From Minisyncoccota bacterium (GTDB lineage: Bacteria > Patescibacteriota > Minisyncoccia > Phycocordibacterales > Phycocordibacteraceae), in the NCBI GenBank assembly GCA_035627595.1, contig DASPLK010000002.1, positions 85,864 to 149,863 of the forward strand: a DNA stretch of 64,000 nucleotides, in the 5' to 3' direction. Positions 62,246 to 63,488 of the stretch are shown one piece after another. The notes under the pieces are model-generated. The model was not told the DNA's origin, made no database searches, and saw nothing but the letters and a program-made list of their open reading frames with translations. The position numbers were made by a program, and so were the translations under genes. Numbering within the stretch: the first letter of the stretch is position 1; each line of letters opens with the position of its first letter.

Positions 62246-62406
62246 AAATGGACTATAGCACGCACTAATGGAGCACTACCCTCCTTTTCCAACAAGGATG
62301 TACTTATAGCTGCGAGTAGCAGTGGACGCCTTGACAGAATCTGGAATCAGCCTACGCTTTAGGATACCGCGCTTGATGCGGTTGTTCTATCTGAGGAGGG
62401 TTCACC

Positions 62407-62928
62407 ATGACCCCGCAAGTACAGGCTTCGGCGCTGCCTGAAAGCGCCGTTCCGGTGACCCTGGCCGAAATGGGCGCCAGGGTGGAGTCGCTCTATGCCC
62501 GCCTCAAGGGGTGGGACATGAGCATCGTCAAGCGCTACTGCGTCGAGAAGGGTCTCTACACAGCCGACGAGATCGACGGCATCGTGGACGAGTACACGCG
62601 TTTTCTCGCGCTGACGCTGGCCTACCCTGAGACCCGGATTCCGATCGCCGCCAAGGTGGATACGCTGTGGCACACCCACATCATCTTCACCGAGGACTAC
62701 CAGGCGTTCGGCGTCTACATGGGCGGCTTCATGCACCATCGGCCGTCCATCCTGGACCAGGGCTTCGACCTGGACGCTGAGTTCGTCGAGAACTCGATTC
62801 CGCTCTACGAGCGGCACTTCGGGAAGGCGAACGCCGGCGTGTGGGGCAAGGCGCTGTGCTGCTGCTCGGCTGACGGCTGCTCCGGCAATCATGTTGCCGG
62901 CGACTTCTCCGGCCACGTGAACAACTGA
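62407..62928 (+). CDS. DUF1399 / glycine-rich-domain-protein-like (GRDP-like) protein with Cys-rich C-terminal tail
   Basis: DTLWHTHIIFTEDY...FG.Y..H.P motif shared with the downstream paralog; GAGGAGGG Shine-Dalgarno; markedly higher GC3 than the flanks. Confidence 0.6.
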   Translation: MTPQVQASALPESAVPVTLAEMGARVESLYARLKGWDMSIVKRYCVEKGLYTADEIDGIVDEYTRFLALTLAYPETRIPIAAKVDTLWHTHIIFTEDYQAFGVYMGGFMHHRPSILDQGFDLDAEFVENSIPLYERHFGKANAGVWGKALCCCSADGCSGNHVAGDFSGHVNN

Positions 62929-62950
62929 TTCGAACAACCGGTCGGATCCA

Positions 62951-62983
62951 AGGGCCGCCCCTCACCGGGCGGCCCTTTTGTTT
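62951..62983 (+). terminator. strong rho-independent terminator
   Basis: GGGCCGCCC-ctcacc-GGGCGGCCC followed by TTTTGTTT. Confidence 0.65.
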
Positions 62984-63030
62984 GACTACAGAAGCCAAAT
63001 TGGGTACAACCTAGCCACTGTTCCTTACAG

Positions 63031-63414
63031 ATGAAAGGGAATCTCATGGACCAGGCTACAGCCTCGGTGCGACAGCAAGGCACCGAAGGGACTCGGCCCG
63101 TTGCCGAGCTCCCCGCATTCGACCTCTCGCGCATTCTCGCTCGAATCAGGAAGGAACACCCCGACTGGCCAGAGGAACGCATCCTGAGGGCGGAGGAGGA
63201 CTACCGCCGATTTCTTGCGTGCGCTAAAGCGGACCGCTACGCGAAATTAAGTCCGTTCGGCGATGTGGACACCGTCTGGCACACGCACATCGTGTACACC
63301 AGGCAGTATCACGCCGATTGCGACGCCTACTTCGGCTACTACCTGCATCACGAGCCGTTTGATGAGACCAACCGGGACTTCGCAAGAAGGAGTGCTCTGG
63401 TTCGGCCCGAATGA
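63031..63414 (+). CDS. DUF1399 / GRDP-like protein (paralog, no Cys tail)
   Basis: EEDYRRFLA...DTVWHTHIVYTRQYHADCDAYFGYYLHHEP aligns with the upstream copy. Confidence 0.55.
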   Translation: MKGNLMDQATASVRQQGTEGTRPVAELPAFDLSRILARIRKEHPDWPEERILRAEEDYRRFLACAKADRYAKLSPFGDVDTVWHTHIVYTRQYHADCDAYFGYYLHHEPFDETNRDFARRSALVRPE

Positions 63415-63427
63415 TGGCATCAATCTG

Positions 63428-63459
63428 AAGAGGTCCCGCAAAGGCCTCTTCTTTTGTTA
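63428..63459 (+). terminator. rho-independent terminator
   Basis: GAAGAGGTC-ccgcaaag-GCCTCTTC followed by TTTTGTT. Confidence 0.6.
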
Positions 63460-63488
63460 GGCGCTCGCAGTATGTTGTAATAAGAGCT

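Follow-up and report, generated by a model that had tools for sequence, protein, structure and literature searches.

A GRDP-like gene with a Cys-rich tail and its tail-less paralogue in a Minisyncoccota genome: a putative peptide-processing family in fused and split forms

Results

Two paralogous genes followed by a methyltransferase gene

Near the end of a 64,000-nucleotide stretch of the genome of a Minisyncoccota bacterium (contig DASPLK010000002.1, positions 85,864 to 149,863; hereafter the window), two short genes called here A and B precede a gene for a class-I S-adenosylmethionine (SAM) methyltransferase on the same strand (Table 1). Their products are members of a catalogued yet uncharacterised family related to the glycine-rich domain proteins (GRDPs) of plants. 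The gene A protein ends in a tail rich in Cys and His residues that the gene B protein lacks, and a comparison of fused and split forms across the family leads us to propose, tentatively, that the shared domain processes Cys-containing peptides.

An earlier description of this region based on its sequence, the original prediction, had presented the two genes as paralogues with their own Shine-Dalgarno sequences and strong terminators, and both points hold. BLASTP aligns the two proteins with 35% identity across 85 residues (E=2e-13), a segment that covers the motif quoted in support of their relationship. GAGGAGG and AAAGGGA motifs precede the start codons of A and B, respectively, and each gene is followed by a hairpin with a T run (Table 1). 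In the 1.4 kb around the two genes we counted four terminator-like sites, vs 0.7 expected in shuffled sequences. There is no third copy of the gene elsewhere in the window.

The gene A protein is 100% identical to the NCBI entry 'hypothetical protein VEA92_01645' of Candidatus Paceibacterota, coded by a 360-kb contig of a genome bin, and public gene calls place the start of gene B at position 63046 (P0010, 122 aa). NCBIfam has no family for A or B. The PADLOC models of anti-phage defence systems matched neither A, B nor the 279-residue protein encoded upstream, and the methyltransferase gave only a generic, domain-level match to mad2. In an Rfam scan of positions 62100-63600, no riboswitch or leader was found; all matches were below threshold and driven by the terminators.

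Table 1. Coordinates of the features described in the text. Positions refer to the window unless a locus is named.
Feature	Position	Strand	Description
Gene A	62407-62928	+	173 aa, UCP032817-like / GRDP-like; G+C content at third codon positions 0.868
Gene B	63046-63414	+	122 aa, tail-less paralogue; alternative start at 63031 (127 aa)
Shine-Dalgarno of gene A	62393-62399	+	GAGGAGG, 7 nt 5' of the ATG, from sequence
Shine-Dalgarno-like motif of gene B	63034-63040	+	AAAGGGA, 5 nt 5' of the ATG at 63046, from sequence
Intrinsic terminator of gene A	62950-62985	+	Hairpin 62950-62977, 11-bp stem with 9 G-C pairs, T run
Intrinsic terminator of gene B	63427-63460	+	Hairpin 63427-63451, 9-bp stem, T run
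His triad codons of gene A	H89 62671-62673, H91 62677-62679, H111 62737-62739	+	Inside D-x-x-W-H-x-H-I…G…H-H-x-P
C-terminal Cys/His tail of gene A	62842-62925	+	Residues 146-173, WGKALCCCSADGCSGNHVAGDFSGHVNN; proposed cis-fused substrate or ligand region
Methyltransferase gene	63489-64000 (cut by window end)	+	Class-I SAM methyltransferase, distantly TehB-like; Pfam Methyltransf_11/25; 195 aa on full contig (L036)
Antisense open reading frame	62359-62937	-	192 aa, spurious by-product of the codon usage of gene A
Split cassette, Pseudomonas savastanoi plasmid NZ_CP078141.1	L038 4607-6595		
Split cassette, Halomonas plasmid NZ_CP130702.1	L039 4728-6709		
Split cassette, P. savastanoi pv. phaseolicola 1448A large plasmid	L081		
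Split cassettes, metagenomic	L040-L061, L068		Peptide end HCQGGG[GSDR]W in all split cassettes of this table

A large family with an invariant His triad

Precomputed matches assign the exact A and B proteins (P0001 and P0010) and all their homologues to Pfam PF27765 ('UCP032817-like'), the sister family of PF07173 (GRDP-like, formerly DUF1399). The DUF1399/GRDP-like assignment made initially was thus right as to kinship and imprecise as to family: PF07173 has no match to the gene A protein at E<=1 and a marginal one to the gene B protein, with 23.2 bits vs a gathering cut-off of 22.7 and over profile positions 95-143 of 143 only. Among 120 relatives, 91 match PF07173 at E<=0.01.

An exhaustive profile search collected 10,792 clusters (at 50% identity) at E<=1e-3, 2,934 of which are retained at E<=1e-10. 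They are distributed among candidate-phylum bacteria, Proteobacteria, Chlamydiae, Chloroflexi, Dormiibacterota and Actinobacteria, with some genes found on plasmids, and they are annotated as hypothetical or as 'glycine-rich domain-containing protein-like'. Within the searchable literature, queries for DUF1399, UCP032817, PF07173, GRDP and HCQGGG yielded plant papers only and none on the bacterial members.

In an alignment of 120 diverse members, Y63, H89, H91, Y98 and H111 (gene A numbering) are invariant, and D85, W88, I92, T95, G106, H110 and P113 are nearly so. The motif W-H-x-H-I…H-H-x-P, with an upstream Y-x-x-F-L, is present in both A and B. The His triad formed by H89, H91 and H111 is also invariant in the alignment of A-type and B-type sequences, and the gene B protein keeps every invariant residue. 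This conservation makes it likely that the triad is a metal site.

The AlphaFold2 model of the gene A protein, with a predicted local distance difference test (pLDDT) score of 84 and a predicted template modelling score (pTM) of 0.79, has an all-helical core that spans residues 19-138, and the model of a second family member reached a pLDDT of 82. The best matches to the AlphaFold2 model m748b3553e796 among the viral models of BFVD, and its only structural matches, were GRDP-like proteins of giant viruses (Harvfovirus, Gaeavirus, Terrestrivirus, Fadolivirus and Orpheovirus), one of which is annotated with a ubiquitin-like domain. No solved structural relative of the GRDP-like domain was found.

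Cys-rich tails follow the domain in most members

As noted in the original prediction, the Cys-rich tail of A is missing from B, in which no Cys residue follows the HHxP motif. The suggestion made there that the tail might be a metal-binding or modified peptide region is the most informative part of the finding. An alignment of A with eight homologues (56-77% identical to A) revealed 12 invariant tail positions, namely W146, C151, C152, S154, G157, C158, S159, H162, D166, S168, G169 and H170. Along the tail, the AlphaFold2 confidence decreases from 90 for residues 141-150 to 58 for residues 151-160 and then to values below 50.

Tails of this kind are widespread. Among 247 sampled members, 191 have at least two Cys residues within the last 45 residues after HHxP, and Cys residues make up 6.1% of that region vs 2.0% of the domain; 12 of these proteins have no more than about ten residues after HHxP. 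Tail motifs are kept within subfamilies and differ between them (e.g. NGQGCDDGC, GLCTPPCVC, ARCKDHSCHAPSSCACRTPGACK, ECCRPCDTDPN and GDCQGGGDGCTSCSSGCSGGGTI). Some tails are tandemly repeated, with for instance six copies of GTCGSGTCSAGNCSGKVTEA or five of PAYCAR, and others are similar to GGCGGCGG.

We also noted a group of proteins, one coded by a Cupriavidus pinatubonensis plasmid (L037, positions 4983-5597) and the others being P0136, P0113 and P0224, whose tails consist of tandem single- or multi-Cys units: 5× (E)PAYCAR, 6× GTCGSGTCSAGNCSGKVTEA, about 10× AAYCNA.. and 4× CMDVRMAGKCGG. Such tails resemble multi-core precursor peptides. A separate observation concerns a related candidate-phylum locus (L005, positions 6556-6876 and 7001-7411), in which the first of the two copies is a degenerate tail-less paralogue, with W-R-I-H in place of W-H-x-H and the HHxP motif missing. 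The loss of H-x-H in the tail-less copy next to an intact tailed copy suggests that the tailed protein is self-sufficient.

A split form with a small peptide and a MATE exporter

In plasmids of Pseudomonas savastanoi and of a Halomonas species (Table 1), we identified cassettes composed of an annotated gene for a 42-44-residue peptide, followed by a gene for a tail-less GRDP-like protein and then by an overlapping gene for a transporter of roughly 440 residues. The peptides end with …GGGGHCQGGGGW or …GGGHCQGGGSW, corresponding to the general form GGGHCQGGG[GS]W. The P. savastanoi plasmid NZ_CP078141.1 is pPSv_PVFi1, and in pv. phaseolicola 1448A the peptide gene is PSPPH_RS31700. A metagenome scan with the two plasmid-cassette proteins of P. 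savastanoi and Halomonas yielded 41 loci, in about 20 of which the same kind of small open reading frame (ORF) is found directly upstream; variants such as AHCQGNGGW, QHCEGRW and GHCMPAPPW are found in divergent loci.

In 1.28 million residues from the six-frame translation of all sequences fetched, HCQG occurs 22 times, and all 22 occurrences are directly upstream of a gene for the domain, on the same strand and 4-7 residues ahead of a stop codon. In a set of 14 distinct peptides, the H, C, Q, G, G and W residues are invariant and the leaders are only 35-66% identical. The codons for the His, Gln and Gly residues vary synonymously, which indicates selection on the peptide itself. The transporter gene adjoins the tail-less gene in 24 loci, and its product belongs to the MATE family, with the Pfam MatE cut-off reached by three of the eight proteins tested, at up to 85 bits.

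The split and fused forms are connected by their Cys motifs. CQGG is found in seven fused tails, e.g. GDCQGGGDGCTSCSSGCSGGG, including those coded by the methyltransferase-carrying candidate-phylum loci L005 and L077. The upstream peptide is missing from loci with a fused tail, just as the tail is missing from split loci, a pattern classically taken as the mark of a functional link that gene fusion has brought to light. The cassette for the HCQGGGxW peptide, the GRDP-like protein and the MATE transporter looks like an undescribed cluster of the type that produces ribosomally synthesized and post-translationally modified peptides (RiPPs).

The methyltransferase is the recurrent partner of the fused form

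In nine distinct candidate-phylum loci with fused-tail genes, and on one further metagenome contig, a methyltransferase gene of the same orientation is found 20-90 bp downstream. These loci otherwise have different neighbours, and their tail motifs are very different. Across loci, the methyltransferase is the only recurrent neighbour of fused-tail genes; no gene for a radical-SAM enzyme, a YcaO protein, a lanthionine synthetase (LanM), an MNIO or a protease recurs beside them. Likewise, no known maturase, leader protease or dedicated exporter, as expected of a classical RiPP cluster, adjoins A and B. Among solved structures, the methyltransferase is closest to TehB proteins (4dq0, E=7.7e-15, and 2xva, E=2e-14), aligned over nearly their full length, and its scores of 19-40 bits are far below the NCBIfam cut-offs for TehB equivalogs (218-303 bits). 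In a related locus (L005, positions 8048-8911), we observed that a gene for an AstE/AspA-type zinc hydrolase overlaps the end of the methyltransferase gene.

Proposed function of the GRDP-like domain

Our functional proposals are all computational. The one we favour, with slightly less than even confidence, is that the GRDP-like domain is a metal-dependent peptide-processing enzyme, the substrate of which would be a short, Cys-containing and Gly/Ser-rich peptide provided in cis, as in gene A, or in trans. The gene A protein would be an enzyme-substrate fusion whose own tail (…W-GKAL-CCCSADGCSGNH…GH.NN) is modified or cleaved; the gene B protein, as a tail-less paralogue, may act in trans on the tail of A, and the downstream TehB-like enzyme might perform a tailoring methylation. 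As for the chemistry, we would guess a metal-dependent oxidation, cross-linking or heterocyclisation at Cys residues, a guess motivated by the conserved Cys and Trp residues of the split peptide and by the invariant Trp of the A tail, W146, which precedes C151 by five residues. The main chemical alternative would be proteolysis, that is, the proteolytic release of a leader or a tail. The strong terminator after A and the codon bias of that gene described below would be in keeping with a much more abundant production of A than of B and the methyltransferase, as for a substrate.

The invariant His/Asp/Tyr constellation, the existence of free-standing forms and the presence of a separate leader in the split peptide argue that the domain is not a mere leader. 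The domain is also the sole conserved protein of the split cassette apart from the transporter, which makes it the obvious candidate to act on the peptide. From these patterns we infer a catalytic role for the domain, beyond mere binding of the peptide, with the tail of A as the substrate.

Several points weigh against this proposal. The tail of A (CCCS..GCSGNH) has no HCQGGG motif, and the link between the split cassette and A thus runs via other subfamilies. There are no obvious genes for small peptides upstream of the tail-less members of Pseudovibrio, Legionella, Nisaea and others, and many proteobacterial tail-less members are devoid of both an obvious upstream peptide and an exporter. 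Instead of being a modifying enzyme, the domain encoded by the split cassette might serve as a chaperone, as an immunity protein or as a leader peptidase. With respect to structure, only the first residues of the A tail are confidently placed, which gives no structural support for the tail reaching the His site, and the short tail of the second modelled member is predicted to be disordered (pLDDT <50). We had considered that tail docking on the His site might be a general feature of the family and set the idea aside in view of this second model. The metal-binding role of the triad is deduced from its conservation, and no family member is known to be enzymatically active, to contain a metal or to be modified. 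Finally, the combination of a Cys/His-rich tail with a TehB-like enzyme would be accounted for just as well by the binding of a metal or metalloid.

The latter point leads to the main rival explanation, which we consider unlikely though not negligible. According to it, the His triad and the Cys/His tail, with its vicinal Cys residues and terminal His residues, would bind a soft metal or metalloid (Te, Se, As or Cu), the TehB-like enzyme would methylate the bound chalcogen or metalloid or a thiol, and the cassette would be a detoxification or metal-buffering unit with the tail as ligand. The conserved tail positions C151, C152, C158, H162, D166 and H170 are consistent with this, as is the equal conservation of tail and domain among orthologues, which would be expected of a binding site. 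Moreover, the TehB proteins 4dq0 and 2xva, to which the methyltransferase is closest among solved structures, are linked to tellurite resistance, and copper-buffering Cys-derived peptide tails are known in bufferins (PMC12452194). However, the methyltransferase scores 24-40 bits vs the TehB cut-off of 218, and the tails found together with it differ greatly in their Cys patterns; we found neither metal-resistance genes, nor metal-sensing regulators, nor a riboswitch in the vicinity. The split cassette, with its leader-bearing peptide and MATE exporter, is also left unexplained by metal handling. The two explanations are compatible, as a tail modified by the domain could bind metal, by analogy with bufferins (PMC12452194).

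A third explanation would make the gene A protein a classical RiPP precursor, with the 145-residue domain as a long leader of the nitrile-hydratase or Nif11 type, the tail as the core peptide and the enzymes encoded elsewhere. The conserved N-terminal domain followed by Cys-rich tails that vary by subfamily and are sometimes tandemly repeated would be in keeping with such precursors, as would the low confidence or disorder of the tails in the AlphaFold2 models. We nevertheless regard this as improbable: such a 'leader' would harbour an invariant His/Asp/Tyr constellation, the tail-less protein occurs in a free-standing form in many genomes with its His triad kept, and the split cassette encodes the domain separately from a peptide that already possesses a leader. 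In addition, no known maturase recurs in the vicinity, and candidate-phylum genomes are very small.

A broader version of the proposed enzymatic function can be formulated, more doubtful as a whole. The domain might be a metalloenzyme of an unseen fold responsible for a new class of peptide or protein-tail modification, occurring in a split form and in an autocatalytic fused form such as A, and the plant GRDPs would likewise be fusions of an enzyme with a Gly-rich substrate. Three elements appear to be new in the searchable literature: the relationship between fused and split forms, the cassette combining the HCQGGGxW peptide with the GRDP-like and MATE proteins, and the candidate-phylum cassette with a TehB-like methyltransferase.

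Composition of gene A and origin of the locus

The original prediction had interpreted the locus as a high-GC patch with two genes recently acquired from a high-GC donor, leaving the function of the family open. We compared the G+C content at the third codon position (GC3) of A and B with that of 65 long, non-overlapping ORFs of the window, for which it amounts to 0.599 ± 0.063 with a maximum of 0.724. Gene A is extreme, with a GC3 of 0.868 (z about 4.3), and gene B, at 0.71 (z about 1.8), is elevated yet within the range of the window. The high GC3 thus characterizes a single outlier gene and not a patch spanning both genes. The DNA is indeed more GC-rich here than in the rest of the window, as the bin 62501-63000 has the highest G+C content of all 500-nt bins, but with merely 0.62 vs a mean of 0.54.

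The contents at the first and second positions of gene A (GC1 0.603, GC2 0.425) are ordinary for the host genome. Its bulk-usage codon index is 0.777, in a host range of 0.595-0.778, and its codons mostly exaggerate the preferences of the host, with the exception of CTG and GCC, which are used far more than in the host. The GC3 excess is shared with orthologues of A, which have values of 0.89 vs a background of 0.66 in L001 and 0.74 vs 0.45 in L002 (z 6.3), and with tail-bearing relatives, at 0.68 vs 0.45 in L003 and 0.62 vs 0.41 in L013.

As for the relatives of the locus, candidate-phylum genomes or metagenomes are the source of all close homologues, which are 56-77% identical to A and 57-78% identical to B. 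The best matches had been expected in high-GC taxa; they proved to be candidate-phylum genomes (Paceibacterota, Minisyncoccia or similar) with 47-54% G+C. The order of A, B and the methyltransferase gene is repeated in L001 and L009, and the histidine kinase, SET, EamA and tyrosyl-tRNA synthetase (TyrRS) neighbours, as well as the downstream methyltransferase, are common to related candidate-phylum loci. There is no integrase or transposase gene flanking A and B, and the nearest tRNA gene is 5.8 kb away.

Between the window and L001 (positions 454-969 for A), the number of synonymous substitutions per site (dS) amounts to 0.45 for A, compared with 2.0 and 2.9 for the adjacent B and methyltransferase genes, respectively. 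At identical residues, 19% of the codons of A differ vs 39% expected from its own codon usage (z -4.8). This low synonymous divergence could result from very high expression of A or from later exchange of A among related lineages.

The candidate-phylum homologues, the conserved synteny, the host-like GC1 and GC2 and the recurrence of the GC3 excess leave an import from a high-GC donor unsupported. That explanation, already contradicted by the taxonomy of the homologues and by GC1 and GC2, seems very improbable: it would account for a GC3 about 4.3 standard deviations over that of the window genes, for the heavy use of CTG and GCC and, through exchange, for the low dS of A relative to its two neighbours, but the codon index of A is at the top of the host scale, its orthologues have the same excess against background GC3 values of 0.45-0.66, B and the methyltransferase gene are not compositional outliers, and no mobile element or tRNA gene flanks the locus. 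More generally, an extreme third-position composition in a single gene is not by itself a sign of foreign origin.

Other possible sources of the GC3 excess were considered. The mRNA folding signal is weak (z -2.3 for A and -0.9 for B). As to the ordinary codon bias of highly expressed genes, the GC3 of the one gene for a ribosomal protein (L9-like, positions 31749-32201) identified by eye in the window is just 0.52. The long ORF antisense to A, which the original prediction had called spurious, is indeed so. It is open because A is devoid of TTA, CTA and TCA codons, and the ratio of non-synonymous to synonymous substitution rates (dN/dS) between orthologues is 1.1-1.35 in the antisense frame vs 0.25-0.38 in the sense frame. 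With a dN/dS of at least 1.1 and an openness that stems from codon usage, a real overlapping gene was discarded as the cause of the synonymous constraint on A.

Other genes and features of the window

Upstream of A, the window encodes the 279-residue unknown protein, an EamA protein, a SET protein, a histidine kinase and TyrRS. Downstream of B are the genes for the methyltransferase, for an unknown protein of 157 residues, for a fused ABC exporter of 589 residues and for DnaJ. The last three are located past the window end and on the opposite strand (L036, positions 7047-10424); the exporter might be linked to the cassette or its presence might be coincidental.

The 140-residue product of a gene on the minus strand (positions 60005-60427) has a hydrophobic segment at its N-terminus, is rich in Cys in its central part, with about 12 such residues, and becomes very acidic at its C-terminus. 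Although Pfam gives no match for it, it is kept beside the SET gene in L001 and L009. Two close genes for class-I synthetases of the tRNA-synt_1b type are found at positions 54749-57823, the first at 54749-55747 (332 aa) and the second, the TyrRS gene, at 56570-57823, the latter directly adjoined by a tRNA-Tyr(GTA) gene (positions 56459-56543). Finally, the region 35500-37000 has the lowest G+C content of the window (0.43-0.45 vs the mean of 0.54), and its ORFs have a low GC3 (0.49 for 35844-36386). It is a clearer anomaly of bulk composition than the region of A and B.

Discussion

Implications

The DUF1399/GRDP family, with about 10,800 clusters (at 50% identity) in our search, extends over bacteria, giant viruses and plants and has no known biochemistry and no solved structure. 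The pattern of fused and split forms provides it with a testable hypothesis, namely that the domain acts on a Cys-containing peptide, and a tractable experimental entry is offered by the cultured Pseudomonas and Halomonas strains whose plasmids carry the three-gene cassette. If the hypothesis is true, RiPP biology would be extended by a novel enzyme fold and perhaps by a novel peptide modification, even candidate-phylum bacteria with minimal genomes would maintain such a system, and there would be a biochemical lead for the stress-related GRDP proteins of plants.

Comparison with known systems

The methyltransferase encoded downstream of B has its closest solved structures in TehB, with an alignment over nearly the full length. 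It differs from TehB by scores below the equivalog cut-offs and by the lack of a TehA partner, its partner being instead the Cys-tailed GRDP-like gene.

The cores of McbA, the precursor of microcin B17, are rich in Gly, Ser and Cys residues, as are fused tails such as GDCQGGGDGCTSCSSGCSGGGTIK. Unlike in the microcin B17 system, no YcaO cyclodehydratase or dehydrogenase is present, and the tails follow a folded domain and not a short leader.

Among the substrates of MNIO enzymes, the TIGR04222 membrane proteins and the bufferins are likewise protein-sized putative precursors with unstructured, Ser/Gly-rich and Cys-containing C-termini, and their Cys segments have been proposed to be modified for copper binding (PMC12452194). 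One member of the GRDP family, P0177, combines GRDP-like domains with a membrane segment and a GGCGGCGG tail, similar to TIGR04222 proteins. In contrast, there is no MNIO (DUF692) or DUF2063 gene beside the window genes or their relatives, and the window proteins have neither a signal peptide nor a membrane segment. The candidate enzyme of the GRDP-like cassettes differs from that of MNIO systems in that it would be the GRDP-like domain itself.

Borosins provide a parallel to the proposed logic, since in OphMA-type fusions the enzyme carries its substrate at its C-terminus and related systems are split. The same architecture of a domain with a C-terminal putative core and split homologues is found here, with A and 191 of 247 relatives in the fused form, 22 split loci and seven CQGG tails. 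Nevertheless, the borosin enzyme is a SAM-dependent alpha-N-methyltransferase of known fold, and the GRDP-like protein is an unrelated, small helical protein with a His triad and putative autocatalysis.

The plant proteins GRDP1 and GRDP2 possess the same PF27765/PF07173 domain with the motif D-x-x-W-H-x-H-I-L…H-H-x-P. They have been described through stress and developmental phenotypes only, with no known biochemical activity (PMC4299439, PMC8585784, PMC13001069). The plant proteins are larger, and the bacterial members consist of a single domain with tails that are Cys-rich rather than Gly-rich only; both have in common the architecture of the domain followed by a C-terminal region, which in plant GRDPs is of low complexity and Gly-rich.

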